A stretch of 64,000 bases of DNA from a virus (lineage: Duplodnaviria > Heunggongvirae > Uroviricota > Caudoviricetes), in the IMG/VR virus record IMGVR_UViG_3300027710_000009; one strand, written 5' to 3'. The number at the start of each line of letters is the position of its first letter. Position 1 is the first letter of the stretch. Both the position numbers and the translations under genes were made by a program. Below, in pieces: positions 8,794 to 43,026 of the stretch. The notes under the pieces are model-generated. The model searched no databases. It had not been told where the DNA came from and worked only from the letters and a program-made list of their open reading frames with translations.

Positions 8794-8807
8794 GTGTGTT
8801 CCATTTT

Positions 8808-8820
8808 ATGTATTTATGGA
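8808..8820 (-). promoter_or_regulatory. Putative T4-type late promoter (CATAAATAC) upstream of the 2110-aa structural gene
   Basis: Minus-strand motif TTCCATAAATACAT lies 18 nt upstream of the ATG at 8793. Confidence 0.4.
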
Positions 8821-8833
8821 ACTGAAAAACGTA

Positions 8834-13340: not shown

Positions 13341-16300
13341 TTATTGTGTTAGTGTAGATAATTGCGATCCAGTGACCAGTGCTGGCCATACCTGTATTTT
13401 TGCAATAGTACCGTTGATAAAGTTAGTTCCTGGGCCACTGCCAATATTCATTGTATTGATAGATGAGCTTACGTTGCCGGCCACAGCAGTTGTTGTGCCA
13501 GTTCCATTGGCCGCAGTGGCCAATGTGCCAGACTGGAAATATGAAGCCAGTCGGTTGTTGTTGACCACAGTGGTCAAGTTGCCTAACGTAATATTGGCAT
13601 TGGATTCCACTGTGCCAGCTTTGACAATAATTAAATTAGCTGTGCGTTCAGCAGTGGCTGATTTAGTTTCTGCCAGGATTGCAATGCGATTGCTTGCAGT
13701 ACCATCATTGAAACTGACAATAGTGCTACGTCTATTGTTGTCTACCAATGTGCTAGGATTGTAGTCTAGCGTGGCATCAACCAACACACTGTTTTCAACT
13801 TGGTTGTAACGGCGTAAAAATTCAATGCTAGAAACTGTTAGGCTTTCTGAACTGCGTGTGTTGGCAATGGTTGTGGTTGGAATATAACTGGTCGCAAATC
13901 CGCCTTCTTCCACTTGGAATCCATAAATGTACACGCCATTGGTGCCATTGCCAGTATAGTAAACTGATCCACCTGTTGCTGATGCAATTGCCACGTTGCC
14001 GCTGGTATTGGTTTTGTTTATGGTACTTTGGATACGGTACCAGCCATTGGCCAATGTTTGCATGCTACTGCGATAGTCAGGTCCTTGGAAATCAATTGTT
14101 CCATTGGTCAAGTCAAATATTGCTGGGTTTGACTCAGCAAAGAAAACCAATGACACTTGATCTCGTTCTCCGCGTTTGACAAACGCACTGGCTGTGTATG
14201 TGGTACCAGCTGATATTGTTGGAACATAAGGCGCCTGTTGATAAACAGCATGAAGACCGGTACTACTATCTTCTACCAATTTGAAAGCATTATAGTTTCC
14301 ATCCGGACTTGAGGTAGCATGTGCTACTGTTGTGATTGATGCCTGCAAAGTGGTGTATACATTGGCATTGCCAAAGCTGTTGCTTTCTCTATACAAGTTT
14401 GTGCGGCTCTCTTCAATAAGAATACCACGTGAACGCAATGTGCTAGGATCATAGGTAAATCTAGGTGTCTGACTAGGAGCAGTGACCAGGAATCCTCTTG
14501 CATCATAATATGTGGCTGTCCCAGTTCTAGAAAAATTCAATATTGTATCTAGTTTGCGACTGTTTGCAAAATCAAAACTGATTGCTGGACGTGATGGTGG
14601 GCGAACGTTTCCTGCGCCAATCGCCAGCGTGGTAAATGCACCTGAGCTGGGTGTTGCATTGCCAATTGGTGTGTTGTTGATAGATGCTGCCAAGAACGCT
14701 GTGAAGTTCACGTTACCAATAATGGTCGCTTCACCAGCAACATACAGGTTACCACCAATTGATGCGCCGCCTCGTACCTGCAAGGCACCACTTAGCTGTT
14801 GGATATTGGCTGCTGTTATCTGTGCAACGTTGCTGTTGATGTAAACAATTTCTTTACCAGCATTGTAACCTACGTTACCAAAACCAACAATGATATTGCC
14901 AGTAGCACTTATACCACCGCGCACTCGTAATGCCCCGGTGCTCAAACTAGTTGCATTTGCTGCCGCTGAAAGATTACCCACAGTAACAACATCAGCCACA
15001 GTAACAACGTTGGCTGTGACGCTGCCGGATGTACTGTTTGTTGCAGTCAACGTGTTGGTAGTAAATGAGTTGATTACGTTTGCATTGTTGAGCACACGCA
15101 GATCGTTGTTGACCGTGACGTTGCCAGAGCCTATATTACCAACTGTAGCAATAAAGAAAGATCCATCAACCAACAGGTTGTTGCGAACTCTAGTGATACC
15201 CAATCCGCTAATAGCACCAACATTGATCAATGTTGCTTCGCCACCAATATCAAGATTAGTAACAGAACTTGGGAATAGTGAAACGTTTGCTACGTTGGAA
15301 TAAATTCCTGTTCCGCCACCGCCACCAATGTCATTTAGATAGATAGAATTACCAATAAATGCACTGTCTAGTACTTCAAGACTTTTGGCTGAACGTAAAT
15401 TACCTTGTGAAGTAATGAGTCCATCAACGCTTACGTTTCCAACTACACCAAGGCCACCAGCAACTTGCAATGCTCCAGTTGCTGCCTCAATTGATTCCGC
15501 TGTTGATCTAACAAACAATGTGTCAACTGACAGTGTGTTTGTGATTGACGCAGAACTTGCCTGGAAGTTGGCGCTGAATGCATTTACATTGGAACCCAAC
15601 ACAATCAACTGATTAGTCACATTCAAACTGCTCAGTGCATTTACATTGTTGACCAGCGCAGTGTTTCCAGACACTGTCAAGTTGGCAATTTGTGCTGTGC
15701 CAGTTACCTGTGTGTTGGCTGATACAGAGTTACCAGTTGTGTTTGTGGACACAGCATTGACATTGCCTACACCAATATTACTAGTTACGCTCAAATTTGG
15801 CAAAGTGCCAATGCTGGTTATAAACGGTTGTGCATTTGTTAGCAGTGTTCCGTCTATGTGTGTAAAGGTGCCTTTGAATGCGCTGATATTGGCTGATGTT
15901 ACATTTCCACCAATGTTTGCTTCAAGCGTAATATTTGCTGTGGTAACATTCAAGTCACGCAACACTGCACCGGCAGCAGTGATGTTTGCAGTGTTGACCA
16001 CATTAATAACTGACAACGATGTCAATGCACCAAGTTCAGTGATATTTGGTTGGAAGTTGTTGACTATGTAACCACGCAGTAGAGTACTAACATTACCAAC
16101 TGCAGGGGCTAGTACAGTGCCAGCAACATCTAGATTCCCTAACAGTCCAACTTCAGTAATAAAAGGTTGCGAATTGGTTTGTAGTGTGCCTTGTACTTGT
16201 GTAAACGTGCCTTTGCTTGCGCTGATGTTACCAGCAGTTACGTTACCAGCAATGTTTGCCTCTGAGCCAATATTGGCGTAAGTTGCATTGATGTCTTTGA

Positions 16301-19300
16301 ATGTTGCACCATTGGCAGTTACATTTGCAAGTGCAGTTGTGCCAGTTACTGCCAATCCAGACAGTGTACCAATAGTAGTGATGTTGGTTTGGCTGGCATC
16401 AAGCACGGCACCGCGTATGTTGGTAAATGTACCAGTTGCGCCACTAACGTTGCCAGTTGTGACATTGCCTGTCACGCCAAGTGAAATTAATGTGCCAACT
16501 GACGTGATATTTGTTTGACTAGCAGTTTGTAGTGTACCATACACATCGGTAAACACACCATTTGTTGCAGTGACATTGGCATTGGCAGATACATTTTCAC
16601 CACGTACTAAAGTTGTAGCAGTGACATTTGCAAAATGACCAGTTGTGGCATTGACATTGCCTGCATCAACATTGCCAGTCACATCCAAGGTAGTCAAAGT
16701 GCCTACACTGGTAATGAAAGGTTGTGCGTTGTTTAGAACAGTACCAGTAAAGCTAACCAAATTGGCAATACCAGTCACTGTTAGATTAGAAGTTGTTAGA
16801 TTTGCTGTAGCGGTAATATTCTCTACAGCAAATGCAGATCCTGCACCACCGCCTTGGATTACCAATCCGCCAACGGTTGCTGTGCCAGTTACATTCAAAT
16901 TGCCAAGATTACCAACAGTGGTGATGTTGGGTTGTGATGCAGTGAGAACAGTTCCAACAATATTGGTAAATGATCCAGTAGTGCCACTTACATTGCCTGT
17001 GCCAACATTGCCTGTTACAGACAATGTGCCTAGTGTACCAACTTGAGTAATGTTTGGTTGTAGTGCTGTACGCAACGAACCTGACAGGCCAGTAAATTCA
17101 CCAACTGTGGCTATTACGTTCCCAGACGCAAACACATGTTCTGGTCGTAATATTTGGATGTTACCGTTGGTTGCGTTTATGTCTTGTATTGTAGCGCCAG
17201 CTACTGTAATGTTGGCTGCTGTCACTGCACCGGTTGTTGTAACAGAAGTCAGTGTACCAACGCTTGTGATATTTGGCTGTGCGGCTGTTTCTAGTGTTCC
17301 GCCAACAATGCTGAACGATCCTTTAGAGCCACTTACATTGCCTGTACTCACATTGCCTGCAATGGCAAATGCGTTTGGTGTGGTCCATACACCATCATAA
17401 ATGGTTAGATTACCGTATGCTCCGCCTTGACCAATAAGTATACCAGAACCACGTGCGGCGGTTGAGTTGACAGCACCATTGGCCAGTGTTAGGTCTTTGT
17501 CGCTGGTGGTTACATTGCCTGCGCTGACCGTGGTGGTGTTGCCGTTTACAAACAAGTTTCCGGTAACATAAAAATCTTGTGCTACAAATTGACTACCAGT
17601 AATACTAACTGGGCCATCAACTGACAATGCTGACAAGGTACCAATAGCGGTAATGAATGGTTGTGCATTGGTTTTAACTGTTCCGTTAAGATCAGTAAAA
17701 TAACCAATGTTGGCAAATACCTCCTCAGTCTTGATGCCCACCGTGGCGTTAACAATATTGCCGTCAATGTTGCCATCTGCATATATTCTGCCCAGGACCC
17801 AAACATTGCCTGAAAGAATATTGCCGGATATTGTGGCAGTAGGACCAGTCAAGTTACCAACCAGTGTAGGGGCTGATATTTGTGTGTTGGCAACAACATT
17901 GGATGCCACAAGATTGCCACTGGTGGTAATTGATGTCAGTGTGCCAACGCTGGTTATATTGGGTTGCTGAGCAGTGAATAGTGTGCCACTAATGTTGCTA
18001 GAAACTAATGTGTTTGCTAGAGTAAAATCACTAACCACAGTGCCAATTACTATGGCACTGTTGACAGAATTGATTATGTTTCCAATAACACCTAGGTTGC
18101 CAACTACTATTAGGCTTGTGAGATTACCAACTGTGGTAATGTTAGGTTGTTCGGCTGTTAATACAGTACCCGAAAGTCCAGCAGCTTGTACCGTACCAGA
18201 AGCAGTTACATTCCCGCTGGTGGTATTGCCAGTAACAGCCAAGTTGACCAATGTACCAACTCGAGTGATGTTGGTTTGTACCGGAGTAATCAAAGTGCCA
18301 GCCACAGTATTAGCTGTCAATCGGTTTGTGGCAATGTTGGCATTAAGGGTGTTGATGTTGCCAGAATCAATATTGCCTGTCACAGCAAGCGAACCAAGAG
18401 TACCAACTGTGGTAATATTTGGTTGTGCAGTTGTGAGCAAGTTTCCAACAATGTTGGTAAATGTACCTGTAGTACCACTTACATTTCCAGTTGTGACATT
18501 ACCTGTCACGGTCAACGATCCAAGCGTACCAACGCCGGTGATACCTGCTTGTACACCATTGGTCAATGTGCCATCAACAACAGATGCAGTTACTCTGCCA
18601 GCAGTGATATTGCCGGAGACCACCAGGTTGCCAAGAGTACCAACTGTGGTAATGTTTGGCTGTGCGGCAGTTTGCACAGTGCCAGACACCACGCTAAAGT
18701 TGCCATGGTAACCTTGGATGTTGCCAACCAAAACGTTGCCTGATAAATTGGGTACTGCGATTGCGGCAATGGCTGCATTGGCCGCGGCAATGTTGGCCTG
18801 CAAAGAACTGATAGCACTGCCTTGTGCTGACGCATTGCTTGTGAGAATATTTAGACTGGTAGTCTGGGCCCCAGCATTGGCTGTGAGCGTGTTAATTTGT
18901 GTTGCTTGTGTTGCGGCATTGGCAGTCCATGCTACAGTAACAGCCGCAATGGCTGCATTGGCCGCATCAATGTTGGCACGTAGTTCAGATATCTGTATGT
19001 TGGCAACTGTTATGTTTGCGGCGGCAATAGCTGAATTGGCCGCGGCAATGTTGGCACGTAGAGAATTGATTGCCAATGCTTGCACACCAGCGTTGCCACT
19101 GGTGCTAGTAGTCAAACTGCTGATTGCTGAATCAGTATAAGCCTTGAGCGCAGAATTTGCTGTTACAATGGCCGCATTGGCTGCTGTGACGTTGGCACGT
19201 ATGCCTGCAATACTATTGTGTTGAGCACCTGCGTTGGCATCTGTTTGTGCTCTCAAAGAAACTATGGCCGCATTGGCTGCTGTGACGTTGGCACGTAGAT

Positions 19301-20174
19301 TGTCAATTTCAACGTTGGCCGCTGACATTTGTGCAGTGGTCACAACACCACTGGTGATTATGGCATTGGCTGCGTTAATGTTTGCTCTAAGAGCATTGAT
19401 CTGGACAGCTTGAGAAACAGCATTGCTCCAGACACTACTGACGTTGGATAGTAGTACGCTGACATTGCTGGTCACTGCTCCAATTGCCAGAGCTTGAGTG
19501 GTAGCATTTGATGTTAAAGTAGTGATGCTACTTTGCACAGATACAATGCTGGAATTTGCCGCTTCAATATTGGCACGTAGGTTGCCAATTTCAACATTGG
19601 CTGCGGCCACACGTGCATTAGCACCCAACACAGCATTGCTGATTGGTGTTAGGTTAACAACAGTGTTCATACTACTGTTGTCAGAGAATCTCAGGGTGTT
19701 GACTGTGAGGGTTTGTCCAACCACAAGGTTTTCGGTGACCGAAGCGGGACCGTCTACAACCAATGCGCCATTCACAGTGGCTGTGTTGGTTACTGTGATG
19801 TTACCAGCAGTGATTTCGGCATTGCTAATGGTAGCATTGGCAATGGTGCCGCCGGTTACAGTTATATTGGGCAATGGGCCCAGACTGCTTATTGCGGCGT
19901 CAGTGTAGGCTCGATCAGCGGCAGAATTTGCTGCCATACTTGAACGCAGTTGGCTTACGTCAACATTGCTTGCTACACCAGTTACGTCAAACCATGCTAG
20001 CTGTACATTACCTTGTTTTCCAGCAACGGAATACACCAACGTGTTGGCTTGAACTGCTACATTTCCGCTGTAGATGTTAGCGAAGTTTTGGTTGACTTTG
20101 TCAAACGCCGTGCGAAGATCATCGCCATCCCCCGCACCAGCGCCACTACCAATATCTATTATCTGCTGAGACAT
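13341..20174 (-). CDS. Giant repetitive fibrous protein (2277 aa), probable long tail fibre or whisker
   Basis: 6.8-kb ORF with a conserved fibre N-terminal motif. There are about 14 copies of a module AQPNIT(S/T)VGTLxxLxVTGNVxxGNVSG, plus an N-proximal array of LRANIxAANAAI coiled-coil repeats. Extreme Ala/Asn/Thr/Val/Gly composition. CATAAATATC lies 20 nt upstream. Confidence 0.6.
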   Translation of the reverse strand: MSQQIIDIGSGAGAGDGDDLRTAFDKVNQNFANIYSGNVAVQANTLVYSVAGKQGNVQLAWFDVTGVASNVDVSQLRSSMAANSAADRAYTDAAISSLGPLPNITVTGGTIANATISNAEITAGNITVTNTATVNGALVVDGPASVTENLVVGQTLTVNTLRFSDNSSMNTVVNLTPISNAVLGANARVAAANVEIGNLRANIEAANSSIVSVQSSITTLTSNATTQALAIGAVTSNVSVLLSNVSSVWSNAVSQAVQINALRANINAANAIITSGVVTTAQMSAANVEIDNLRANVTAANAAIVSLRAQTDANAGAQHNSIAGIRANVTAANAAIVTANSALKAYTDSAISSLTTSTSGNAGVQALAINSLRANIAAANSAIAAANITVANIQISELRANIDAANAAIAAVTVAWTANAATQATQINTLTANAGAQTTSLNILTSNASAQGSAISSLQANIAAANAAIAAIAVPNLSGNVLVGNIQGYHGNFSVVSGTVQTAAQPNITTVGTLGNLVVSGNITAGRVTASVVDGTLTNGVQAGITGVGTLGSLTVTGNVTTGNVSGTTGTFTNIVGNLLTTAQPNITTVGTLGSLAVTGNIDSGNINTLNANIATNRLTANTVAGTLITPVQTNITRVGTLVNLAVTGNTTSGNVTASGTVQAAGLSGTVLTAEQPNITTVGNLTSLIVVGNLGVIGNIINSVNSAIVIGTVVSDFTLANTLVSSNISGTLFTAQQPNITSVGTLTSITTSGNLVASNVVANTQISAPTLVGNLTGPTATISGNILSGNVWVLGRIYADGNIDGNIVNATVGIKTEEVFANIGYFTDLNGTVKTNAQPFITAIGTLSALSVDGPVSITGSQFVAQDFYVTGNLFVNGNTTTVSAGNVTTSDKDLTLANGAVNSTAARGSGILIGQGGAYGNLTIYDGVWTTPNAFAIAGNVSTGNVSGSKGSFSIVGGTLETAAQPNITSVGTLTSVTTTGAVTAANITVAGATIQDINATNGNIQILRPEHVFASGNVIATVGEFTGLSGSLRTALQPNITQVGTLGTLSVTGNVGTGNVSGTTGSFTNIVGTVLTASQPNITTVGNLGNLNVTGTATVGGLVIQGGGAGSAFAVENITATANLTTSNLTVTGIANLVSFTGTVLNNAQPFITSVGTLTTLDVTGNVDAGNVNATTGHFANVTATTLVRGENVSANANVTATNGVFTDVYGTLQTASQTNITSVGTLISLGVTGNVTTGNVSGATGTFTNIRGAVLDASQTNITTIGTLSGLAVTGTTALANVTANGATFKDINATYANIGSEANIAGNVTAGNISASKGTFTQVQGTLQTNSQPFITEVGLLGNLDVAGTVLAPAVGNVSTLLRGYIVNNFQPNITELGALTSLSVINVVNTANITAAGAVLRDLNVTTANITLEANIGGNVTSANISAFKGTFTHIDGTLLTNAQPFITSIGTLPNLSVTSNIGVGNVNAVSTNTTGNSVSANTQVTGTAQIANLTVSGNTALVNNVNALSSLNVTNQLIVLGSNVNAFSANFQASSASITNTLSVDTLFVRSTAESIEAATGALQVAGGLGVVGNVSVDGLITSQGNLRSAKSLEVLDSAFIGNSIYLNDIGGGGGTGIYSNVANVSLFPSSVTNLDIGGEATLINVGAISGLGITRVRNNLLVDGSFFIATVGNIGSGNVTVNNDLRVLNNANVINSFTTNTLTATNSTSGSVTANVVTVADVVTVGNLSAAANATSLSTGALRVRGGISATGNIIVGFGNVGYNAGKEIVYINSNVAQITAANIQQLSGALQVRGGASIGGNLYVAGEATIIGNVNFTAFLAASINNTPIGNATPSSGAFTTLAIGAGNVRPPSRPAISFDFANSRKLDTILNFSRTGTATYYDARGFLVTAPSQTPRFTYDPSTLRSRGILIEESRTNLYRESNSFGNANVYTTLQASITTVAHATSSPDGNYNAFKLVEDSSTGLHAVYQQAPYVPTISAGTTYTASAFVKRGERDQVSLVFFAESNPAIFDLTNGTIDFQGPDYRSSMQTLANGWYRIQSTINKTNTSGNVAIASATGGSVYYTGNGTNGVYIYGFQVEEGGFATSYIPTTTIANTRSSESLTVSSIEFLRRYNQVENSVLVDATLDYNPSTLVDNNRRSTIVSFNDGTASNRIAILAETKSATAERTANLIIVKAGTVESNANITLGNLTTVVNNNRLASYFQSGTLATAANGTGTTTAVAGNVSSSINTMNIGSGPGTNFINGTIAKIQVWPALVTGSQLSTLTQ
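15600..18700 (-). repeat. Protein-level tandem module repeats inside the 2277-aa fibre gene
   Basis: Recurring (A/S)QPNIT-VGTL ... TGNV-TGNVSG-TG-FTNI modules in the translation. All plus-strand ORFs across this region are mirror-frame artefacts. Confidence 0.6.
18760..19640 (-). repeat. Nucleotide-level tandem repeats (~60-90 nt units) encoding LRANIxAANAAI coiled-coil repeats
   Basis: Repeated strings aatggc(t/c)gcattggc(c/t)gc...aatgttggcacgtag are visible at 18770, 18950, 19030, 19160 and 19270. Confidence 0.6.
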
Positions 20175-20229: not shown

Positions 20230-20559
20230 TTAGACGCTGAAACTGCTACCGCAACCACATGAAGTTTGCGCATTAGGGTTGATTATCTTGAATTCTGCCC
20301 CCATGAGATCTTCCTTATAATCCACTGTAGCCCCTTGTAAGTACTGACTGCTCATACTATCTACCAACAACGGAACACCGTCGAAATCCATAGTAAAGTC
20401 ATCTTCGTTGGTTTCTTCGTCTAGGGTAAAGCCATACTGCATACCCGAACACCCTCCGCCCTGCACAAATATGCGCAGTTTAATCTTGGGATTGTTTTCC
20501 TCGGCCAGGATGTCCCGAATTTTTTCCACTGCACTAGGATTGAGTTCTAGTATATTCAT
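20230..20559 (-). CDS. iscA: Fe-S cluster insertion/carrier protein IscA/ErpA (HesB family)
   Basis: Motifs [15 protein letters not shown] and the C-terminal CGCGSSF are diagnostic. Start refined to the ATG at 20559 (MNILELNPS), which has a GGAGG RBS 8 nt upstream. The longer track ORF is an N-terminal over-extension. Confidence 0.85.
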
Positions 20560-21119
20560 TTGATGCCTCCATATATTCTTCGATTCACAGTTTCCCAGTT
20601 TATAATACGCCATATATTTTTTAAGTATTTGGCCTTGTCTGCTTGATAATCCAGTGCCCAGGCATGTTCCCACCAATCTATTAGCAGTGCAATGTCTTTT
20701 TTGATCTGATGATTTTTGATTGTTTTGATTTCGCCAGATCTGCTGAGATACACCCAGCCTGACCCTTGTATGCTCATGGCTTGTTTTTCCAGTTGTTTTT
20801 GGAAATCAAGATATGTACCAAATTTACGATTGATCAGTTCTGCACTGGCGCCTTCAGGTTTGTTGCCAGACACAGGTGATTGTAGTTGTGTAAAATATAT
20901 GTTGTGTAGAAACGCACCTGCTTCGTTGAAGTCTGCATCGCCTTCGCCGGCATTGTATCGATCAACATAACCTCGATACAACGTGCCGTAGTGATAGTCC
21001 AGGGTATCTTTGGATTTCACAGGATCAAGATCTGTGCGTTTGTAAGGCAATGTTGCCTGCACAAGATCTTTCTTTTCCTTGCTTTCCACAAGTGAAATTA
21101 GTTGTCGTATGGTACTCAT
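20556..21119 (-). CDS. sod: Fe/Mn-family superoxide dismutase
   Basis: Motifs LPY..DLDP, the [13 protein letters not shown] metal-ligand His, and [12 protein letters not shown] (SOD signature D-x-W-E-H-AYY). The ligand residues H26/H81/D/H are conserved. Start is probably MSTIRQL; an alternative ATG lies at 21164. Confidence 0.75.
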
Positions 21120-21123
21120 ACGA

Positions 21124-21345
21124 CTATTTAGTACGATATATGATCCTACCGCGGGACAAATCATACGGGCTCATTTCTAGTTCAACTGTGTCGCCCATGA
21201 GCACTTTGATATTATTTTGGCGTAATTTGCCGCCAAGATACGCAATTATTTTATGTTGGCTATTTTCGAGTGCCACTCGGAATGTAGCATTGGGCAGTAC
21301 TTCTTCTACCACACCAGTTACATTAACAAATCCTTCTTTAGCCAC
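21124..21345 (-). CDS. infA: Translation initiation factor IF-1
   Basis: MAKEGFVNVTGVVEEVLPNATFRVALENSQHKIIAYLGGKLRQNNIKVLMGDTVELEMSPYDLSRGRIIYR aligns along its full length with bacterial IF-1 (S1-like OB fold). Confidence 0.85.
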   Translation of the reverse strand: MAKEGFVNVTGVVEEVLPNATFRVALENSQHKIIAYLGGKLRQNNIKVLMGDTVELEMSPYDLSRGRIIYRTK

Positions 21346-21766: not shown

Positions 21767-22153
21767 TCATCTTTAGCTATTTTAGCTTCTTGTACAATTT
21801 TTGTCAACAGATGCCAAACAGGGTGTGCAAAATAACCCACAATGGCGCCGTAGATGAACCATTCAACAGCATGCCAAAACTCAATCATAGATGCACTTCC
21901 CATGCGCCAGTTACGTGATTCCAATGGCGTGTGTCGTAGATTTGGAAAGATATGCTGTGACCAAACACAGCTAGTTCTAGGGTAAGCCCAGCATGGCTTT
22001 GTCGCCGAGTATAACTGAATTCAAATCCAATCAGTGTGCGTGTTTGCAACAGCTCTGCTTCCCAGGCCAGGTGGTCGGTGATCAGGCCTGACCGATTCCA
22101 TAGATTGGCAAAGGGTCGGCCCCAGGGGTTACTTAAACCAACATTGATGTAGA

Positions 22154-22654: not shown

Positions 22655-22841
22655 AGGCCAAGATCAAATTGCCTTGTGTTGCGATCTTTTCCAGTTGCAC
22701 AATGCGAATGCGTTTGTCTGCTTCTGTTTTGACCAATTCAATTTTATTTTTGAATTCTGCACGTTCAACAATAAATCTCAGTGCAAGTAACAATGCCCAT
22801 GCTACTCCCAAAATTGTAAAAATTTCCATTATCGTATCCAT
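22488..22841 (-). CDS. Hypothetical membrane-anchored protein (N-terminal transmembrane helix)
   Basis: ORF beginning MDTIMEIFTILGVAWALLLALRF. A sigma70 promoter lies just upstream at about 22859-22887. Confidence 0.4.
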   Translation of the reverse strand: MDTIMEIFTILGVAWALLLALRFIVERAEFKNKIELVKTEADKRIRIVQLEKIATQGNLILAYDGENNDFLGQGATVQEVKESIMSRYPEKFFILEDKVFSKIQDQLEVQIGNSNSR

Positions 22842-22896: not shown

Positions 22897-23742
22897 TTAA
22901 GTCCAAAGTCCGTTGCGTATGCGGATCAAACGGATCATCATTTGCTCATCTTCTTTTTCATAGAATTTTTCAATTTGGTTAGCACGTTTGATTGCACGAT
23001 TTTGAGCATTTCGCAGAGCCTTGCTCTTGGGTTGACTTAGGCTCCATTTGCCACCATTTTCTTTGCGAATCTGTTCGCTTACTGCACTCCACCCACTGGC
23101 ATCATGTGCGTCTGGTCGATTGCAATAAGTTTCGGTCCACCAGCGATACAAGGTCAAGATTTCTATAGCTTTTTCGGCTTGTGGTGTAGGCTTGCCAAAA
23201 TTTGGATCGGTGGGTGACACTCCGTACTGCTGATCCATGACCAGTTTGCTTTGCCATTCTAGGTTGTCTAGTCCTGCCTGAGGACAGCGCCACACACGCA
23301 CACGCCACCAGCCTGCCGCCCACCAAGGCATGTTGTATTTGGCTCTGAGTTCTTTGCCTTCCCATACCAGGTGCCACCATGCCAATTCTACTTCAACAAA
23401 ATCCACAAGCTCATTGAAAAGACAAGGAAGGAAACGATTGCCAACATCACACCACTCGCCCCTTTTGATGTTTCGAGGGTGTGCAGTAAGAGCATGAGTG
23501 CGAGTGATCCAACGATTGTTAATATAGTACTTGATATCATAGAGTTTCCTTACAGGCCAAGTCACAAAGTCTTGTAGCCAGTCCAGTGCTTCTTCAGCAA
23601 TCCAGTAGCGAACAGGATGTGCTCGTTGTGCTTCGTCATTCCACTCATCCCAACCTTCGCTGGTCAGTGCATGTGGTTTTACCACACCGCGGATCCACTC
23701 TGCGAATTTGGTGTTGCTCCAGTATTGAGAATGTTGTGCCAT
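22897..23742 (-). CDS. Hypothetical Trp-rich protein (281 aa)
   Basis: Long ORF with no recognisable motif. Confidence 0.45.
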   Translation of the reverse strand: MAQHSQYWSNTKFAEWIRGVVKPHALTSEGWDEWNDEAQRAHPVRYWIAEEALDWLQDFVTWPVRKLYDIKYYINNRWITRTHALTAHPRNIKRGEWCDVGNRFLPCLFNELVDFVEVELAWWHLVWEGKELRAKYNMPWWAAGWWRVRVWRCPQAGLDNLEWQSKLVMDQQYGVSPTDPNFGKPTPQAEKAIEILTLYRWWTETYCNRPDAHDASGWSAVSEQIRKENGGKWSLSQPKSKALRNAQNRAIKRANQIEKFYEKEDEQMMIRLIRIRNGLWT

Positions 23743-24221
23743 TATTTGTTGTTTCCTGTGTCTGTTAAAGTGATAGTGCTGAGATCCATGCTACCAAGAC
23801 TCACAATATCATTTGATGTCAGCGGAGCAATGTTAACATAGTTATGTCCACCGAGCATTGTGCTGCCGCTGCCACTGCCAATAACACTGAGAGGTCCTGC
23901 CATGATTCCACTGAGATTTAATGTCATATCAGTGGTATTGTCAGAACTGGTAAACAAATCACTCTGCCCGTTGTTTTGCAGTATCTGTATGTCACGTTTC
24001 ATTTCTGTCATTTCACGTTCCATCCAGTCCAGTCTTGTTACCATGTCAGAGAATGGCCCGGGTTCTTCTTTTTTCTGTTGTGCCAGCGAACTTAAAAATG
24101 CCAGTCTGTGAAAGGCGCTTTTTACTGCATCGCTGTCGCTGGTAATGATATCATCAAATATGCCAGCAAGTTCACGAATTTGTTCTTCGGTAATCTTCAT
24201 ACAAATTTCAGTAGGAACCAA
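23742..24221 (-). CDS. Hypothetical protein (159 aa)
   Basis: ORF. Confidence 0.4.
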   Translation of the reverse strand: MVPTEICMKITEEQIRELAGIFDDIITSDSDAVKSAFHRLAFLSSLAQQKKEEPGPFSDMVTRLDWMEREMTEMKRDIQILQNNGQSDLFTSSDNTTDMTLNLSGIMAGPLSVIGSGSGSTMLGGHNYVNIAPLTSNDIVSLGSMDLSTITLTDTGNNK

Positions 24222-24436
24222 GTCCTGGCCTGCTCCGTGTAAAAGTCAATGTGTATCTCTGTTTCACCCCAGTGCCCGCCATCCATTTTTGGAACCCATG
24301 GACGGTGTTCACGAGGCATGAATCCCAGTTCGTCACGCATGCGACCTCGTAGCATGATCATGCTTTGCCCAAATTCTGCGCGAAGTTGTTCACGGATTCG
24401 GTTCCATTCTGCATGTGTGAGTTCATGGTGTTTCAT
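24197..24436 (-). CDS. LKW-tail family small protein (member 1; ends FLLKFV)
   Basis: C-terminal module I-x-F-x-x-E-x-x-x-x-F-L-L-K-F, shared with eight downstream paralogues. Confidence 0.5.
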   Translation of the reverse strand: MKHHELTHAEWNRIREQLRAEFGQSMIMLRGRMRDELGFMPREHRPWVPKMDGGHWGETEIHIDFYTEQARTWFLLKFV

Positions 24437-24437
24437 G

Positions 24438-24749
24438 CTAGATCCATTTGAGTGTCATTAGTATAGCATGTTCTTTGTTTTTGAACAAGAACAACATGTT
24501 GTCTTCGGTGGGATGTGTTACATAATTTTCGCCCGGAAGTCCAAAGTTTTCCACAGCCCAGGCACATGCTTCATTCCAAAAGTAACTTGTGTCTTTGCCT
24601 TTTTCCCATTTTAATTCTACTGGAGTCCAGTCTGCGCATTCTTCCAAGGTTGCCTCCCAAAGCAAGTTGTTGATAATCTCACGATCTATTTGCTCAGCCA
24701 TCTCTTTGGCAAGATTCTGCATGAGTTCCTGTTCTAAATCTAGCTCCAT
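24438..24749 (-). CDS. LKW-tail family small protein (member 2; ends MTLKWI)
   Basis: C-terminus LFLFKNKEHAILMTLKWI. Confidence 0.55.
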   Translation of the reverse strand: MELDLEQELMQNLAKEMAEQIDREIINNLLWEATLEECADWTPVELKWEKGKDTSYFWNEACAWAVENFGLPGENYVTHPTEDNMLFLFKNKEHAILMTLKWI

Positions 24750-24958
24750 TTTAGTGTAAACAGCGTGGCTTCTTCGTCTTCACCAAACAACAACCCTGCC
24801 GCTTCTTTTTCGCCCACCGATGTGGGATTGCTTTTGATCCACACCTGATACGCACCGTAGTCACGTTTGATCCACTCCCAGAACTCCACATCGATCTTGT
24901 GGTCACGGTGATACTCTTGTAGTTTGTCGTAGAATGGTTCAACAGCAATAGTGATCAT
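24740..24958 (-). CDS. LKW-tail family small protein (member 3; ends FTLKWS)
   Basis: C-terminus LLFGEDEEATLFTLKWS. Confidence 0.55.
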   Translation of the reverse strand: MITIAVEPFYDKLQEYHRDHKIDVEFWEWIKRDYGAYQVWIKSNPTSVGEKEAAGLLFGEDEEATLFTLKWS

Positions 24959-25164
24959 AGTTCTTTTATGGTCAGCATGGTTGCCCAGGCTTCTGCATCG
25001 CCATTGAACATGAATTGCAGTTCGCGATTGTTTTGATCCACACGCCAGGTGTAGTCTCGACCCATGACAATGCCTTGTTCTTTGAGCCAGCGAGAAATAG
25101 TCACGCCACGGTGAGATTCTTGTTCTGCGCTGCCTTCCCGGAACGGAAGTGTAACTATCTGCAT
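24955..25164 (-). CDS. LKW-tail family small protein (member 4; degenerate, ends LTIKEL)
   Basis: C-terminus LQFMFNGDAEAWATMLTIKEL. Confidence 0.5.
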   Translation of the reverse strand: MQIVTLPFREGSAEQESHRGVTISRWLKEQGIVMGRDYTWRVDQNNRELQFMFNGDAEAWATMLTIKEL

Positions 25165-25165
25165 G

Positions 25166-25372
25166 CTACCCCCATTTTAGCAAAAATGCTGTCATATCTT
25201 TTTCGTGGCGAAACTTGAATGTATCGTAACTGGTTCGCCGGCCACATCTATGTTCATAACACCATTCCCCAATTTTATCCAGTACATTTTGTGTGTACCC
25301 GGGACTACTGTAGTTGGCCAATCCCTCAACCACACGTAGTGTCATTTTTTCTCGAACAAACTTTATAGCCAT
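25166..25372 (-). CDS. LKW-tail family small protein (member 5; ends FLLKWG)
   Basis: C-terminus FKFRHEKDMTAFLLKWG. Confidence 0.55.
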   Translation of the reverse strand: MAIKFVREKMTLRVVEGLANYSSPGYTQNVLDKIGEWCYEHRCGRRTSYDTFKFRHEKDMTAFLLKWG

Positions 25373-25605
25373 TTCAGTATAAAAACCTCTGCGTCTCTTG
25401 CATCTTCAAAGTAAAACAAAAAACCTGCGGTAGGATTCCACTCTGGTCCACGCAACTGATATCTACCAAATCCTGCATACTCATTCACCCAATTGGTCAA
25501 GTCATGACAGTTAGGGCGTTGTTTCAGCATGCGTTCCCAAGGCATAAACACCTGTGTCCAGTGTGCAGGAAACGGCAAGCTGTCATCCTTGATCATGACG
25601 ATCAT
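25363..25605 (-). CDS. LKW-tail family small protein (member 6; ends FILKWL)
   Basis: C-terminus FLFYFEDARDAEVFILKWL. Confidence 0.55.
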   Translation of the reverse strand: MIVMIKDDSLPFPAHWTQVFMPWERMLKQRPNCHDLTNWVNEYAGFGRYQLRGPEWNPTAGFLFYFEDARDAEVFILKWL

Positions 25606-26041
25606 GCATGGTTACTCCATTCAAGTGATCCAGCTCATGCTGATAGCACACAGCGGCAAGTTCTTCTAGTTCTTCTTCATGCCAGTCACCGTGTATGTCT
25701 TGATATCTGGCCCAGATCTTTCTTGGACGATGTGTAAGTACATATTCATCGGGAAAACTTAAACAACCTTCCTGGCATTCAAACAGTTGATCTGTTGTGG
25801 CATCAGAAAATTCAGGATTGAAACAGGTCCTGGTCAATCCGTTAACACTCATCACAAACACTCTGCGGCTGATGCCTACCTGTGGTGCAGCCAAGCCAAT
25901 TGCATCACTGTCAGTCATAAACTGGTGCATCATGGTGGCCAAGCGCATGAGTGGCCGTGCATCCTCAAAGGTGACAGGCTTGGCAACATTTTTTAACACA
26001 CGATGTGTGAGTTTGAGTTTGTTAGGTATAATCATAGCCAT
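25583..26041 (-). CDS. def: Peptide deformylase
   Basis: All three PDF motifs are present: GLAAPQVG, EGCLSFP and HELDHLNG. Confidence 0.9.
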   Translation of the reverse strand: MAMIIPNKLKLTHRVLKNVAKPVTFEDARPLMRLATMMHQFMTDSDAIGLAAPQVGISRRVFVMSVNGLTRTCFNPEFSDATTDQLFECQEGCLSFPDEYVLTHRPRKIWARYQDIHGDWHEEELEELAAVCYQHELDHLNGVTMHDRHDQG

Positions 26042-26286
26042 TTCAGTGTAAATATCAGTTTATCTCGTTCTTCGACAAAATGAAATATATATTTGTCGTG
26101 ATTGTCTCGACCTGCCCAAAACATACACCACGCACCGTCGGTGTTTTTACCTATAGCTTCCCAACGCTTGCCAAACTGTTGCTGGCACCATGCACCGGCG
26201 TCTCTGTGTTTCTTAGCGTCGATTAGTACACTATGTTCTAATTGACGGAATGCCCTGCGATGTCTGCGTGTTTGTGCTGAGTTCAT
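26032..26286 (-). CDS. LKW-tail family small protein (member 7; ends FTLKWL)
   Basis: C-terminus YIFHFVEERDKLIFTLKWL. The likely ATG start is at 26286 (MNSAQ); the track start at 26295 is a GTG. Confidence 0.5.
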   Translation of the reverse strand: MNSAQTRRHRRAFRQLEHSVLIDAKKHRDAGAWCQQQFGKRWEAIGKNTDGAWCMFWAGRDNHDKYIFHFVEERDKLIFTLKWL

Positions 26287-26465
26287 TACGACCACTTGAG
26301 AGAAAATAACATGGCATCTTTTTTGTGCGTGAATTTGAAATGATACTGTGTGTTATGGAATAGACTTTCCAAACTAAGTTGCCAGTGTTTGTATCCAATA
26401 TTTTTCACTGCCCATGCGCCGGCTTGGGTGGCTTTATCTGCGTCTGTTAAGATTATGGTTGTCAT
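26286..26465 (-). CDS. LKW-tail family small protein (member 8, 59 aa; not in the ORF track)
   Basis: Own translation: MTTIILTDADKATQAGAWAVKNIGYKHWQLSLESLFHNTQYHFKFTHKKDAMLFSLKWS. TAATG coupling with member 7. Coordinates approximate. Confidence 0.45.
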   Translation of the reverse strand: MTTIILTDADKATQAGAWAVKNIGYKHWQLSLESLFHNTQYHFKFTHKKDAMLFSLKWS

Positions 26466-26471
26466 AGTACA

Positions 26472-26501
26472 ATTATAGCATACTATTACTTATTTTGTCA
26501 A
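26472..26501 (-). promoter_or_regulatory. Sigma70 early promoter (TTGACA-N18-TATAAT)
   Basis: Minus strand: TTGACAAAATAAGTAATAGTATGCTATAAT. Confidence 0.5.
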
Positions 26502-26710
26502 TCTACCCATTTAAGCATGAACCAATTGGCATGCGCCAATCGCGGGAATATAAACACAGTGGTATCCAAACTGGTGTCCACTTCTCCCCACCCTGGCCCC
26601 CACATTTCAAAGCACCAGGCAATCAATTCTGCCCGTTCTTCTCTAGTGACTCTACCAGCGTTTAGGTACCATGAGCCACTGCTATTTGTCAGGGTTATTT
26701 TGCTCAACAC
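26498..26710 (-). CDS. LKW-tail family small protein (member 9; ends FMLKWVD)
   Basis: C-terminus VFIFPRLAHANWFMLKWVD. A perfect sigma70 promoter lies at 26472-26501, inside or upstream. Confidence 0.5.
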   Translation of the reverse strand: MLSKITLTNSSGSWYLNAGRVTREERAELIAWCFEMWGPGWGEVDTSLDTTVFIFPRLAHANWFMLKWVD

Positions 26711-28391: not shown

Positions 28392-29213
28392 TTATATATC
28401 AAATCCCACAGTGGGGTCAAATGTATTTGCTTGCTGTTCGTATCCTCTGTAGCCACGTGGGTTACAGATCACACGACATTGTCCGATCATGTAGTCGCTG
28501 GGGTCATGCATGTGTCCATGTGTCCAGAACAGGATGTTTTCATGATCCAGTATGAACTCGCTCAGGTCCGATGCATAGCCACCATTCATGTCAGTATCAT
28601 GCTTGTAGTGCTCATGCACACTCAGGTAGCTGGGTGCATGATGTGTACAAACCACCACCTTCTTGTCACGATTCAGTTCCAGCATGGTCTTGAAATACTC
28701 CTTGGTACGCATGTGAGTTTCCATGGTATCCTGCGGAGTCAGCTTGCGGTAGATGGCGCCTGCTTTGTTGGTGATAGCACGATAGTCATTCATACCATGC
28801 TTGAGCACCTGTATGCACATGGGATTGCCGCGATTGCAGTCAGTCCACAGTGTGGCACCCAAGAACAACACACCATCAATTTCAATTGATTCATTTTCCA
28901 GCACTGACACATTGTCAGGCACAGTGGCCTTGAGCTCATGCACAGTTTTGTCATAGCGACCGTGATAGTGTTCATGGTTGCCCATGACATAGATAACTTC
29001 GCGGTACTTGGCACATTCTTCAATGAAGAAACGTTGAGCACGATCTTGGCGCTTGGGATCTCCTACTTCAGTCATGATGTTCATTGGGTCATACTTGTTC
29101 TTGAGCAAGGTGCGGCTTTCGCACACATCACCTGACAAGATCAGCACATCTCCGCCTGGCAACTCTAGGTCGCCAAACTCAAGATGAAGATCAGAAATTA
29201 CATTTATTCGCAT
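28392..29213 (-). CDS. Calcineurin-like metallophosphoesterase (Ser/Thr phosphatase family)
   Basis: Motifs DLHLE, GDV and GNHEH. A consensus sigma70 promoter ends only ~7 nt upstream of the ATG, which may make the transcript leaderless. Confidence 0.7.
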   Translation of the reverse strand: MRINVISDLHLEFGDLELPGGDVLILSGDVCESRTLLKNKYDPMNIMTEVGDPKRQDRAQRFFIEECAKYREVIYVMGNHEHYHGRYDKTVHELKATVPDNVSVLENESIEIDGVLFLGATLWTDCNRGNPMCIQVLKHGMNDYRAITNKAGAIYRKLTPQDTMETHMRTKEYFKTMLELNRDKKVVVCTHHAPSYLSVHEHYKHDTDMNGGYASDLSEFILDHENILFWTHGHMHDPSDYMIGQCRVICNPRGYRGYEQQANTFDPTVGFDI

Positions 29214-29219: not shown

Positions 29220-29248
29220 ATTATAGTTGATAATGGTATTCTGGTCAA
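29220..29248 (-). promoter_or_regulatory. Sigma70 promoter (TTGACC-N17-TATAAT) ending about 7 nt before the phosphoesterase ATG
   Basis: Minus strand: TTGACCAGAATACCATTATCAACTATAATAGTCACATG. Confidence 0.45.
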
Positions 29249-31598: not shown

Positions 31599-32390
31599 TT
31601 ATTTAGGCATCATCAATGCGTTGAAGTTTGAGGGCACCACAATGGTCTGCACTTGACCGTTCTTGATACCTTCTGAGATGTTCAACATGGCCTGTGCTTG
31701 CATGAATGCAATACTTGCACCTGAGTTGTTGGCCAGTGCTGCCATACGACGCGATTCGGCTTCAGCAGTTTTGACTTCAACTTCCTTCTGCTTCAATTCG
31801 TTCTTTGAACGAACCAATGCGTTAGCACTTTCAACCACAGAGTCAGCTGGCACAACATTACGAATCAACACTTGGCTGATCATAATAGTACCGTCTAACT
31901 TTTCTTCAGCCAAGTTGCGAACAATCTCGTCTTGGATGAACTTTTCCATTTCACCGCGATTGTCGGCCATGTCCAAGGCCTCATACTTACGAGCGGCTTT
32001 GTAGATAGCGTTACGAGCATTTTGTACAATGTAGTTGTACATCACATAGGTATCACCTTTGAACTCAGCGTGGAATGCTTTGTTCTTGGTTGCGTACAAT
32101 TCACTGACCTGCTGTGGATTGATGTTGTAAACAACCACTGCATCAAAGTCTTTCATGGTTGAGTTGTCTTTGGCCACAGGAGTCATGTTCTCTAATGTGA
32201 CATTCACGTCCTTGATAGGAAATGTGAGCACATCACCGATCAACACTTGATTGAATGAGCCAGGCATGAGTTCGCCTGGCTGAACCTGGCGGTCAAAACC
32301 AACTCGCACACCAACTTCACCCGTTTCAATACGAGTACAACCTGTTGCCAACACAGCCGCGGCAAGAACGGAAAGAGTCAAAATACGCAT
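31599..32390 (-). CDS. SPFH/band-7 (prohibitin/HflKC-like) lipoprotein
   Basis: Lipoprotein signal MRILTLSVLAAAVLATGC. The C-terminal coiled coil LVRSKNELKQKEVEVKTAEAESRRMAA is typical of the SPFH domain. Confidence 0.7.
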   Translation of the reverse strand: MRILTLSVLAAAVLATGCTRIETGEVGVRVGFDRQVQPGELMPGSFNQVLIGDVLTFPIKDVNVTLENMTPVAKDNSTMKDFDAVVVYNINPQQVSELYATKNKAFHAEFKGDTYVMYNYIVQNARNAIYKAARKYEALDMADNRGEMEKFIQDEIVRNLAEEKLDGTIMISQVLIRNVVPADSVVESANALVRSKNELKQKEVEVKTAEAESRRMAALANNSGASIAFMQAQAMLNISEGIKNGQVQTIVVPSNFNALMMPK

Positions 32391-32576: not shown

Positions 32577-32839
32577 CAATAACTCCTTGTAATTGCATGG
32601 TAGGTCAAGAACGCCTTAAACGCATTATATACTATTTCTGCTTCCTTGTCATCCTGTTCAACCAGTTTCCCACGAACATAAAAGCCCGTCTTGGTAATCT
32701 TGAGCATTTCACTGCTTTCGATATCAGTACCAGCATGAAACACAATGTTGCCAGCTTCGGGTTCATTGCCACGCAAGGCCAACACCGTGCCAGGAAAACT
32801 GGGATCTCGGCTGGCGCTTAACGCTCGTTTTTTAATCAT
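32576..32839 (-). CDS. Hypothetical protein
   Basis: ORF. Confidence 0.35.
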   Translation of the reverse strand: MIKKRALSASRDPSFPGTVLALRGNEPEAGNIVFHAGTDIESSEMLKITKTGFYVRGKLVEQDDKEAEIVYNAFKAFLTYHAITRSY

Positions 32840-33201: not shown

Positions 33202-33378
33202 CGGATACTCAATTCCAAAGTGCGTGTCCTGCAGACATCGGGCCGCATCATCGTAGCCGTTGTTGATCAAGGTACGGATACAGTCCTGGATGATCAGTTT
33301 GTCAAACTGCTCCAGTCGCGGTTCACTGACCATATGGATCATTGCTTCAGTTGCTAGTTTTTTCAATCGTTCATTCAT
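33196..33378 (-). CDS. Small protein (60 aa), MN-x-x-LKKLA family
   Basis: ORF. A tandem paralogue lies downstream. Confidence 0.4.
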   Translation of the reverse strand: MNERLKKLATEAMIHMVSEPRLEQFDKLIIQDCIRTLINNGYDDAARCLQDTHFGIEYPV

Positions 33379-33742
33379 TGTTTACTTCCTCTACTGGATG
33401 GTCAGGGATGTTTTCTGTGTCGCCATCTTTGGCCGGTACAAATCCCATGGCCAACATCTTTTGCTCTTCGGAATAGGTACAACGAGGGCGGAACACAAAC
33501 AGTCGGCAAGTGAGATTGTCTTGGCTGTAGTAGATCCTATACCGCACTTGCTCTATACCCAAAGTATCAGCCAGTTCCTGCAATGTGAATGCTTCGGGCC
33601 AGTCCTCGGTTACACTGGTTCGGGTCTTTTCAAAGTAGAAATCCTGCATACGCTGTACGTCAGAACCTCGACCCCAAAATGCGTTTTGCTCACACCACGC
33701 AATCTTGCGGTCCAGCATCTCTGTTGTAATTTCATTGGTCAT
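33371..33742 (-). CDS. Hypothetical protein
   Basis: ORF. Confidence 0.4.
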   Translation of the reverse strand: MTNEITTEMLDRKIAWCEQNAFWGRGSDVQRMQDFYFEKTRTSVTEDWPEAFTLQELADTLGIEQVRYRIYYSQDNLTCRLFVFRPRCTYSEEQKMLAMGFVPAKDGDTENIPDHPVEEVNNE

Positions 33743-42770: not shown

Positions 42771-43019
42771 TTACTCGTCCTTGGATTGTCGTTTTTTGAT
42801 CTTCATTCCTACAAAGGTTCCACAGAATGCTCCTATCATGGCAGGAATAAGCAGCCAATGATTTGTGGTATAACTGATAACTGCAACACTACCAAGTAGG
42901 TAACAGGCCACGCTCCAGAAACTGGCGCCCATCACATTATCTTTTGCAACACATCTTAGATAGTAGGTGTACACAACGTCAAGAAAAAATATAGAAAAAA
43001 ATGTTATTATGTAATTCAC
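42771..43019 (-). CDS. Hypothetical polytopic membrane protein
   Basis: Hydrophobic ORF with a GTG start. Confidence 0.35.
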   Translation of the reverse strand: MNYIITFFSIFFLDVVYTYYLRCVAKDNVMGASFWSVACYLLGSVAVISYTTNHWLLIPAMIGAFCGTFVGMKIKKRQSKDE

Positions 43020-43026
43020 AGAAGTA

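Follow-up and report, generated by a model that had tools for sequence, protein, structure and literature searches.

Large lytic phages carry accessory clusters of small genes, such as the 'hyperplastic' early regions of T4, the host-takeover module of SPO1 and anti-defence gene islands. The array described here lies on the minus strand at positions 24197–26710 of the window, that is, the whole 64,000-nucleotide stretch of DNA from an uncultivated jumbo phage (Caudoviricetes) that was analysed (IMG/VR record IMGVR_UViG_3300027710_000009). It resembles such clusters in the dense packing of its small ORFs, which follow strong host-type promoters, in a gene content that varies among relatives and in the insertion of cargo genes, but differs from them in consisting mostly of one paralogous family with ancient, conserved types. 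Searching the literature for capsid decoys and for tandem families of small proteins in jumbo phages brought up nothing relevant.

Gene layout, cargo and promoters

The locus comprises nine ORFs of 59–103 aa, all of one family, with a peptide deformylase gene (PDF) in between. The initial annotation had reported both the nine small minus-strand genes and the embedded deformylase, and all of them were confirmed at the following positions:

24197–24436, minus strand: g79, a 79-aa member, the most divergent, with the C-terminal end ...WFLLKFV
24438–24749, minus strand: g103, a 103-aa member of the best-conserved type ('WNEACAWAVENFGLPG'), whose N-terminus bears an additional helix of 35 residues
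24740–24958, minus strand: g72, a 72-aa member
24955–25164, minus strand: g69, a 69-aa divergent member in which C-terminal ...MLTIKEL replaces LKW
25166–25372, minus strand: g68, a 68-aa member
25363–25605, minus strand: g80, an 80-aa member
25583–26041, minus strand: PDF, peptide deformylase (Pfam PF01327), outside the family
26032–26286/26295, minus strand: g87, a member with a basic N-terminal tail
26286–26465, minus strand: g59, a 59-aa member representing the minimal domain
26472–26501, minus strand: sigma-70 promoter, a consensus match in the array's sole intergenic gap
26498–26710, minus strand: g70, a 70-aa member and the array's first gene

The first gene, g70, begins with GTG and shares 29 nt with the 159-aa gene upstream of it. 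In the ORF list, g87 has a GTG start at 26295 (87 aa); translation probably begins instead with the ATG at 26286 (84 aa, with a TAATG overlap), as in the orthologs (MNSAQ...). The junctions within the array measure −1, −10, −23, −10, +1, −4, −10 and +1 nt, plus one gap of 32 nt. With junctions from −23 to +1 nt and a single gap, the packing is tight. The further claim that most of the genes are coupled through ATGA or TAATG overlaps did not hold, since ATGA occurs at only two junctions and TAATG at one. At three junctions the internal ATG start is supplied by AAATGG, the codons for Lys-Trp; the ATG of g68, for example, sits within the Lys-Trp codons of g80.

The PDF product matches Pfam PF01327 (E 7e-39, profile positions 6–151 of 156) as well as PHROG 2890. 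It contains all three catalytic motifs, namely GLAAPQVG (G-x-G-x-AAxQ), EGCLS and HELDH (HExxH), and this full-length match together with the motifs identifies it as a peptide deformylase. The gene occupies the same slot in the relative L001 (93% identity) and directly follows the g59 ortholog in L006; the array of L003 has no PDF. The array slot takes up cargo genes, PDF here and a hexapeptide-repeat transferase in a relative.

Promoters were called as matches to the sigma-70 consensus. The element at 26472–26501 on the minus strand (TTGACA, 18 nt and (TG)TATAAT) agrees with the consensus at 12 of 12 positions and ends 6 nt ahead of the g59 ATG, so the g59 mRNA may have little or no leader. 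Both hexamers are kept in L001 and L003, 5–6 nt ahead of the ATG. Including this one, eight near-consensus sigma-70 promoters were found in the region, all oriented with the genes, and the window contains no T4-type late promoters (TATAAATA). The presence of a conserved consensus promoter directly upstream of g59 suggests early expression, and the region bears hallmarks of early transcription, in line with the early region that the initial annotation had assumed.

The shared domain

To establish family membership, we used profile A10, which was built from 48 short family members, all from other lineages. It ranked the nine proteins 1–9 among 1,447 ORFs of the window (E 3e-24 to 0.01); the tenth ORF reached only E 0.33, and profile A3 yielded an identical top nine. 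Leave-one-out profiles searched against the 1,447 stop-to-stop ORFs recovered seven of the nine at E ≤ 0.005. The A10 values were 3e-24 for g103 and 4e-9 for both g70 and g87; leave-one-out and A10 values, respectively, were 8.5e-8 and 1e-10 for g59, 1.7e-4 and 2e-7 for g80, 2.3e-3 and 4e-7 for g68, and 6.9e-5 and 1e-3 for g72. The weakest members according to hhalign are g79 and g69. The latter gave E 0.33 in the leave-one-out test, 3.5e-4 with A3 and 7e-3 with A10, and aligned collinearly across strand 1, helix 1 and strands 2–3 (hhalign P 3e-3). The former was not recovered in the leave-one-out test (E 2.3) and came ninth with both A10 and A3 (E 0.01; hhalign P 2e-4); it appears to begin at helix 1, and its sequence seems to contain an insertion. 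Given that profiles from other lineages place these nine relatives at the top, the array is a real multigene family, as had been proposed. No further members were found elsewhere in the window, where recurrent weak matches at 33374–33742 and 22667–22777 were not significant.

What the proteins share is an entire domain of some 60 aa, arranged strand-helix-strand-strand-helix. The N-terminal halves, which had been described as unrelated, align too, through the first strand and an invariant helix Trp (A-x-W-x3-F-G), so that one domain runs throughout. Structure prediction of lone members, which the initial annotation had proposed as a check, gave a single compact domain of this order in the AlphaFold models of both g70 and g103. 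The g70 model (m739a2f05d347, pLDDT 76) has N-terminal strands, a helix at 23–37, strands at 45–47 and 50–55 and a helix at 58–68. In the g103 model (m550097af580a, pLDDT 84), a helix at 3–37 is followed by a strand at 42–47, a helix at 54–69, strands at 76–80 and 84–89 and a helix at 92–102. In both models, the final strand and the final helix hold the conserved residues, and the C-terminal LKW is part of that helix. Based on these models, F-x-F, D-A and F-x-LKW, together with the upstream Trp and Gly, form the predicted hydrophobic core and helix cap. The predicted fold is a two-layer alpha/beta sandwich, ferredoxin/ACT-like minus the last strand. The remaining positions vary among paralogs and are kept among orthologs.

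All nine proteins have negative hydropathy, with pI values of 4.3–9.8, and neither a long hydrophobic segment nor an obvious signal peptide was seen when the translations were inspected by eye. Each of the nine is predicted to form a single soluble domain of roughly 60 aa. Since the conserved residues are the core of a single domain-wide fold, the suggestion that a C-terminal module is shared for docking or secretion found no support, and the location of LKW inside the last helix of the two modelled members, along with the negative hydropathy, likewise speaks against secreted or membrane effectors with a C-terminal tag.

The view that the module is not a described domain was supported. Scans of Pfam, PHROGs and NCBIfam with the nine proteins and 150 diverse members, and a sequence-profile search of the PDB, found no counterpart of the domain in Pfam, NCBIfam or PDB, and PHROGs too yielded essentially nothing; no characterised inhibitor was found, all matches in these libraries and in BFVD being uncharacterised. 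The predicted fold matched generic ferredoxin/ACT-like sandwiches only (PDB 5v0s and 3mah; the designed LHD29, 6wmk). This likeness is at the level of fold class, whereas the family differs from these proteins in the missing last strand, a sequence identity of 5–10% and the absence of a ligand-binding motif and of any sequence-profile link. An ACT domain is recognised by the full strand-helix-strand-strand-helix-strand fold, a sequence-profile match and the ligand-binding loop, and the family was not assigned to it. DUF3081, represented by the uncharacterised bacterial protein VPA0419 of Vibrio parahaemolyticus (PDB 2jz5), was also rejected: g59 scored 13.5 bits against a Pfam gathering cut-off of 25, none of the 150 family members matched at E ≤ 0.01, and the family profile missed 2jz5 even at E ≤ 10.

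Conservation and distribution

The array has counterparts in contigs of related jumbo phages. A 333.6-kb contig (JGI Ga0620986_00489) contains a one-to-one ortholog of every paralog in the same order, with 63–98% amino acid identity, and comparison of paralogs with their orthologs gave dN/dS values of 0.05–0.24. For the orthologs in L001, the values were 89% identity and a dN/dS of 0.06 for g70, 98% and 0.055 for g59, and 97% and 0.05 for g72, and g80 gave a dN/dS of 0.24. Orthologs of g69 are 81–99% identical, and those of g79 sit at the corresponding point of the array in L001, L003, L006 and L008. Phages of quite different kinds contain the same paralog types; the g87 type 'FGKRWEA...W.MFWAG', for instance, also occurs in arrays of unrelated phages. 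Relatives differ in gene presence or absence. The nine genes are ancient, conserved paralogs in an operon-like array under purifying selection, and the syntenic orthologs, the low dN/dS values and the recurring types contradict the earlier idea of a family being diversified in situ.

At 50% identity the family falls into at least 521 clusters, and it was found in 307 IMG/VR stretches, some of its carriers being environmental jumbo phages of more than 330 kb. Tandem same-strand arrays of 2–8 copies are common within replication or early modules, and the copy number differs between otherwise syntenic phages. Only one match was obtained among 185,579 prokaryotic species genomes, and the family appears to be phage-restricted. 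Neither megablast with the locus nor tblastn with four diverse members found anything in 50,697 GenBank phage records. In BFVD, the matches were limited to proteins of 'uncultured Caudovirales phage' and a weak match in Agrobacterium phage Atu_ph07. A permuted tmRNA and a single contig binned as Polynucleobacter indicate beta- or alphaproteobacteria as candidate hosts.

Possible functions

Our best guess is that the paralogs are soluble early proteins, each with its own partner, and we tentatively prefer, among the functional readings, an ancient paralog array with early, coupled expression that serves host takeover or counter-defence. The host RNA polymerase would transcribe the array early from the conserved sigma-70 promoter, and translation would be coupled. 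The common scaffold may then bind a different partner in each paralog through the exposed sheet edge, the variable surface and the N-terminal add-ons; the likeliest partner would be a conserved protein of the host, or else a phage protein. The genomic context makes a host-takeover or anti-defence role plausible, with the nine genes as candidates, but none of the family's proteins matches one with a characterised takeover or anti-defence function. The stable, strongly conserved array of the jumbo phages also argues against counter-defence, as fast-evolving counter-defence genes usually look different.

The g103-like type is often the sole copy, and in many small phages it lies between the genes for primase and DnaB-type helicase, a position that fits a replication role equally well. 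The domain could bind or regulate the primase or helicase of the phage, or else the replisome of the host, with the jumbo-phage array as an expansion of such accessory factors. Within this widespread group of smaller phages, a lone g103-type gene separates the Toprim primase gene from the DnaB-like helicase gene and overlaps the start of the latter, and where several copies form an array, it is flanked by SF2 helicase genes on one side and by an Rv2179c-like exonuclease gene on the other. However, the 33 single-copy loci overstate independence because many are near-identical contigs, the position is not fixed (other lineages have adjacent Toprim and DnaB genes and the family elsewhere), and the array in the window is flanked by unrelated genes rather than replication genes. 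We regard a replication role as fairly unlikely.

Self-association or ligand binding is also an unlikely explanation. According to this explanation, the truncated ferredoxin/ACT-like domains would pair through the free sheet edge into homo- or hetero-oligomers, and these might sequester a small molecule (for instance a metabolite or an immune signal) or serve for regulation.

The capsid-like N-terminal pieces of some members are an unexplained lead. Residues 3–44 of g103 match positions 168–212 of the Pfam Gp23 profile (E 1.3e-5), and the N-terminal helix also matches PHROG 138, a major head protein. Five of 150 diverse family members match Gp23 (best E 1.8e-7), and the helix consensus of the g103 type resembles the spine helix of the Gp23-type capsid protein in L008; a search of the window for a capsid gene to compare with the g103 helix found none. 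One further member, at L010:8583–8999, matches Gp23 profile positions 2–59 (E 1.6e-8). This stretch aligns with residues 80–140 of T4 gp23 (E 8e-5), which we take to cover the Gol region. This region has been described as the best-conserved part of gp23 and as binding EF-Tu (PMC3014915).

Membership in the Gp23 major capsid protein family (PF07068) was rejected, as no match was obtained over the HK97-type capsid fold (376-position profile). The likeness concerns a spine-helix segment, to which the g103-type N-terminal helix corresponds, and, in one relative, a Gol-region segment. The matches span only 23–60 residues, whereas the family proteins have 60–140 aa, lie behind early-type promoters and share a domain without the capsid fold.

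These pieces have led us to consider capsid-protein mimicry, in which the scaffold would show capsid pieces early and could so blunt capsid sensors or engage the usual binding partners of these pieces, such as EF-Tu or chaperones. The Gp23 and PHROG 138 matches of g103, the five matching members, the spine-helix consensus and the Gol-like segment of the L010 protein all point in this direction, but we consider the explanation improbable. Still more doubtful is a broader version, in which a portable scaffold displays early mimics of the phage's conserved late proteins, blinding immune sensors or occupying host factors such as EF-Tu that recognise those segments. Mimicry would extend to the spine helix and the Gol/EF-Tu-binding segment of the capsid protein and possibly to a lysozyme motif, and the paralog array would act as a panel of decoys and binders.

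Finally, a compositional or chance origin of the C-terminal likeness, or the inclusion of ORFs that are not genes, is already refuted for seven members and hardly credible overall: g79 fails and g69 is marginal in the leave-one-out test, but independent-lineage profiles put all nine at the top, the similarity is positional over about 60 residues, and every member has conserved orthologs at low dN/dS.

Based on the above results, a large protein family is defined that is undescribed in public domain libraries and extends over hundreds of viral contigs, its multi-copy arrays tending toward early or accessory regions of environmental phages. The compact, well-predicted scaffold, the nine paralogs and the clear orthologs make it a practical entry point to the small early proteins of uncultivated large phages. 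If each paralog neutralises a different host factor or defence, the family would be a new source of inhibitors, and if the capsid-like add-ons are functional mimics, they would represent a new counter-sensing strategy.

Organization of the array and relatedness of its products

Ten consecutive genes occupy positions 24197-26710 on the minus strand. The products of nine are small proteins, each named here for its length in amino acids, and the tenth encodes a peptide deformylase (PDF).

Genes of the array
26498-26710, minus strand, g70
26286-26465, minus strand, g59
26032-26286, minus strand, g87 (ATG at 26286 the likely start)
25583-26041, minus strand, PDF (Pfam PF01327, E 7e-39; PHROG 2890; all three catalytic motifs in the translation)
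25363-25605, minus strand, g80
25166-25372, minus strand, g68
24955-25164, minus strand, g69
24740-24958, minus strand, g72
24438-24749, minus strand, g103
24197-24436, minus strand, g79

Besides one 32-nt gap, the junctions measure -1, -10, -23, -10, +1, -4, -10 and +1 nt. At three of them (g87 to PDF, g80 to g68, g72 to g103), the next gene starts at the ATG contained in AAATGG, which encodes Lys-Trp in the conserved C-terminus. A 52-nt direct repeat (26034-26085 and 25365-25416; 71% identical, first 14 nt identical; coding strand, ACTGAAATGGCTAT) corresponds to the 3′ termini of g87 and g80 and flanks the segment of PDF and g80 on both sides with a spacing of 669 nt, and both PDF and g68 start at an ATG inside it. 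The repeat could serve as a recombination site at which cassettes insert, or be merely common coding sequence.

The initial annotation described nine related small proteins with an embedded PDF gene, and this kinship holds across the array. Run against the 1,447 stop-to-stop ORFs in the window, leave-one-out HMMs recovered seven array members at E<=0.005, with g69 marginal and g79 not recovered. With A10, an HMM built from 48 short members of other lineages, hits 1-9 were exactly the nine array ORFs (E 3e-24 to 0.01; next ORF, E 0.33), and the top nine of A3, a 150-sequence profile, were identical. In profile-profile comparison, g79 (P 2e-4) and g69 (P 3e-3) were both collinear with the fold. 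We count seven members as secure; these two are divergent and probably belong to the family. Profile searches of the window ORFs found no further members elsewhere in the window.

Predicted fold and distribution of the family

The F-x-F...LKW similarity noted initially is real but is not limited to the C-terminus. In a MAFFT alignment, a helix ('A-x-W-x3-(F/Y)-G') with an invariant Trp lies some 30 residues before the motif, and the hydrophobic first strand is likewise aligned. AlphaFold2 with family alignments gave compact, confident models for g70 (pLDDT 76) and g103 (pLDDT 84) with a common strand-helix-strand-strand-helix core, in which F-x-F forms the third strand, D-A caps the last helix and F-x-LKW forms that helix. 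Because the motif maps to these elements, the conserved residues constitute the hydrophobic core of the whole fold rather than a tag; in these models, a small fold of truncated ferredoxin-like type has the 'C-terminal module' as its core. For the nine proteins, pI ranges from 4.3 to 9.8 and hydropathy is negative, and inspection of their sequences revealed neither a signal peptide nor a long hydrophobic segment.

A word-indexed search returned 266 relatives; each was a metagenomic 'hypothetical protein', and their contigs reached 374 kb. Exhaustive HMMER against 1.84 billion representatives gave 521 clusters at E<=1e-3, mostly of 43-140 aa, with the consensus W..e.c.W..E.FG.PG.......M.F.F..e.DA..F.L(K/R)W. 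Profile searches of Pfam, NCBIfam, PDB and PHROGs bore out the initial reading, which did not recognize the module as a described domain. In none of 150 diverse members did the domain itself match a Pfam or NCBIfam family, the sole matches being to the major capsid protein profile Gp23 (PF07068; N-terminal helices) and, in a single fusion protein, to AbrB/MazE. Unannotated PHROGs were matched by a few single members, and the family search found no sequence relative in the PDB. Searching 50,697 GenBank phage records by tblastn with four diverse members returned nothing, and the BFVD homologs came solely from 'uncultured Caudovirales phage'. Scanning 185,579 prokaryotic species genomes for the motif gave one match, on a 4.3-kb MAG contig, against 307 stretches in IMG/VR. 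The family is real and large, and by these database results it looks undescribed and restricted to phages.

Two rare architectures were seen among metagenome representatives: in P0183 the family domain is followed at the C-terminus by a DNA-binding domain of AbrB/MazE type (Pfam MazE_antitoxin, 2.9e-7), and P0232 (141 aa) has two family domains in tandem.

Conservation and turnover of gene content

All nine genes and PDF recur in the same order on L001, a 333.6-kb contig from a JGI metagenome, with amino acid identities of 63-98% and dN/dS of 0.05-0.24 relative to the window; PDF is similar (dN/dS 0.05). More distant relatives keep the paralog types and their order and differ in content. The 70.7-kb IMG/VR contig L003 lacks PDF and g68 and has one additional member. 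Its g59 and g80 orthologs are separated by a gene for a 257-aa hexapeptide-repeat (LbH) transferase (L003:5197-5970, plus strand); the array therefore acts as a site where different cargo genes insert. The 168-kb contig L006 lacks g87, has two additional members and places PDF immediately after the g59 ortholog, and contig L008 has at least 10 family members. Taken together, synteny, identity, dN/dS and type conservation show that, contrary to what was proposed at first, the paralogs do not diversify in situ. They are stable, individually constrained genes, whole genes being gained or lost at the slot, and the array itself is ancient and conserved, having taken up cargo genes, PDF among them.

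Downstream of the array, beyond a 159-aa gene, lies a gene for a Trp-rich 281-aa protein (22897-23742, minus strand; 23 Trp) without a Pfam hit, which was present in all lineage relatives examined (L001, L003, L006, L008).

Transcription and possible roles

A perfect TTGACA-18-(TG)TATAAT promoter (26501-26472, minus strand) lies in the only intergenic gap of the array and ends 6 nt short of the g59 ATG. L001 and L003 retain both hexamers and the distance of 5-6 nt to the ATG; with this spacing in three relatives, the g59 mRNA may be leaderless, and the sequence suggests an early transcript that is leaderless or nearly so. A scan for the sigma-70 consensus that set the spacer at 17 nt and allowed no more than one mismatch predicted seven other promoters in the window, all on the coding strand (chance expectation, 0.5), and a motif scan of the window found no T4-type late promoter motif.

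Near-consensus sigma-70 promoters
21779-21807, minus strand
29220-29248, minus strand
32624-32652, minus strand
43467-43495, minus strand, just upstream of the tmRNA
44366-44394, minus strand
56814-56842, minus strand
59629-59657, minus strand

Neighbors in the array region are rIIA, DNA ligase, superoxide dismutase (SOD) and a permuted tmRNA. From the promoters and these neighbors, it is a reasonable inference that the array is transcribed early by the host polymerase. The permuted (two-piece) tmRNA matches Rfam RF04321 (97 bits, E 1e-17); ARAGORN also called a tmRNA (43010-43488), whose tag peptide ends in ...AAFA. Permuted tmRNAs are typical of alpha-proteobacteria, some beta-proteobacteria and cyanobacteria, which hints at the host.

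Other features of the region
2461-8793, minus strand, very large ORF (2,110 aa), upstream of the early region
8834-11932, minus strand, very large ORF (1,032 aa), upstream of the early region
13341-20174, minus strand, very large ORF (2,277 aa), upstream of the early region
20556-21164, minus strand, Fe/Mn superoxide dismutase, around the array
28392-29213, minus strand, calcineurin-like phosphoesterase, around the array
31599-32390, minus strand, SPFH/Band 7 protein, around the array
43171-43457, minus strand, permuted tmRNA

The syntenic L001 has a 2,268-aa large-ORF ortholog after its SOD/Fe-S genes and also encodes IF1/eIF-1a-like, SutA RNAP-binding-domain and Fe-S assembly proteins (L001 13349-13570, 3156-3359).

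Among 80 retrieved IMG/VR loci, same-strand tandem arrays of 2-8 copies were frequent. In smaller phages of one widespread group, these arrays occupy a variable slot in the replication module, with SF2-helicase-associated genes on one side and an Rv2179c-like exonuclease gene on the other, and copy number varies between otherwise syntenic contigs. A lone g103-type copy is often flanked by the genes for Toprim primase and DnaB-like helicase; this type stands alone at 33 loci. A replication-accessory role is a rival explanation, as is a self-associating or ligand-binding one. Clustering showed recognizable types common to very different phages (g103/FGLPG, helix type, g59/g87, 'RWYANN' and 'KSGY').

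Capsid mimicry is an interesting reading suggested by N-terminal pieces. The 35-residue N-terminal helix of g103 matches a Gp23-type spine-helix segment (Pfam E 1.3e-5, profile positions 168-212; PHROG 138), the best Gp23 match among other members reaches E 1.8e-7, and the helix-type consensus aligns with 'DIEAEIMAALAQEITVEIDQEIL' of the L008 Gp23-type capsid protein. In L010 (IMGVR_UViG_3300013094_000239; 8583-8999, plus strand), a member is fused to the first ~60 Gp23 profile positions (Pfam E 1.6e-8). This stretch contains 'GVQPM' and aligns with residues 80-140 of T4 gp23; these residues cover the Gol region, and 'GVQPM' lies within the T4 Gol peptide. According to a review (PMC3014915), Gol is the most conserved part of gp23, binds EF-Tu and triggers the Lit protease. 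On other contigs, g103 orthologs have an extra N-terminal 'GRGL(I/V)Q(I/L)TGR' piece ahead of the capsid-like helix, in the fuller form 'M.Y(R/K)G(R/K)GL(I/V)Q(I/L)TGR.N' in L006:5950-6303 (plus strand), P0003, P0034, P0041, P0045, P0059 and others. The piece, too short for a Pfam hit, resembles the GH19 lysozyme/chitinase catalytic motif. Since the Gp23-like matches are short and missing from most members, we rate capsid mimicry as of low probability.

We tentatively favor, as the most likely reading, that the array encodes putative early, soluble proteins, each binding a specific partner, that would act in host takeover or counter-defense.
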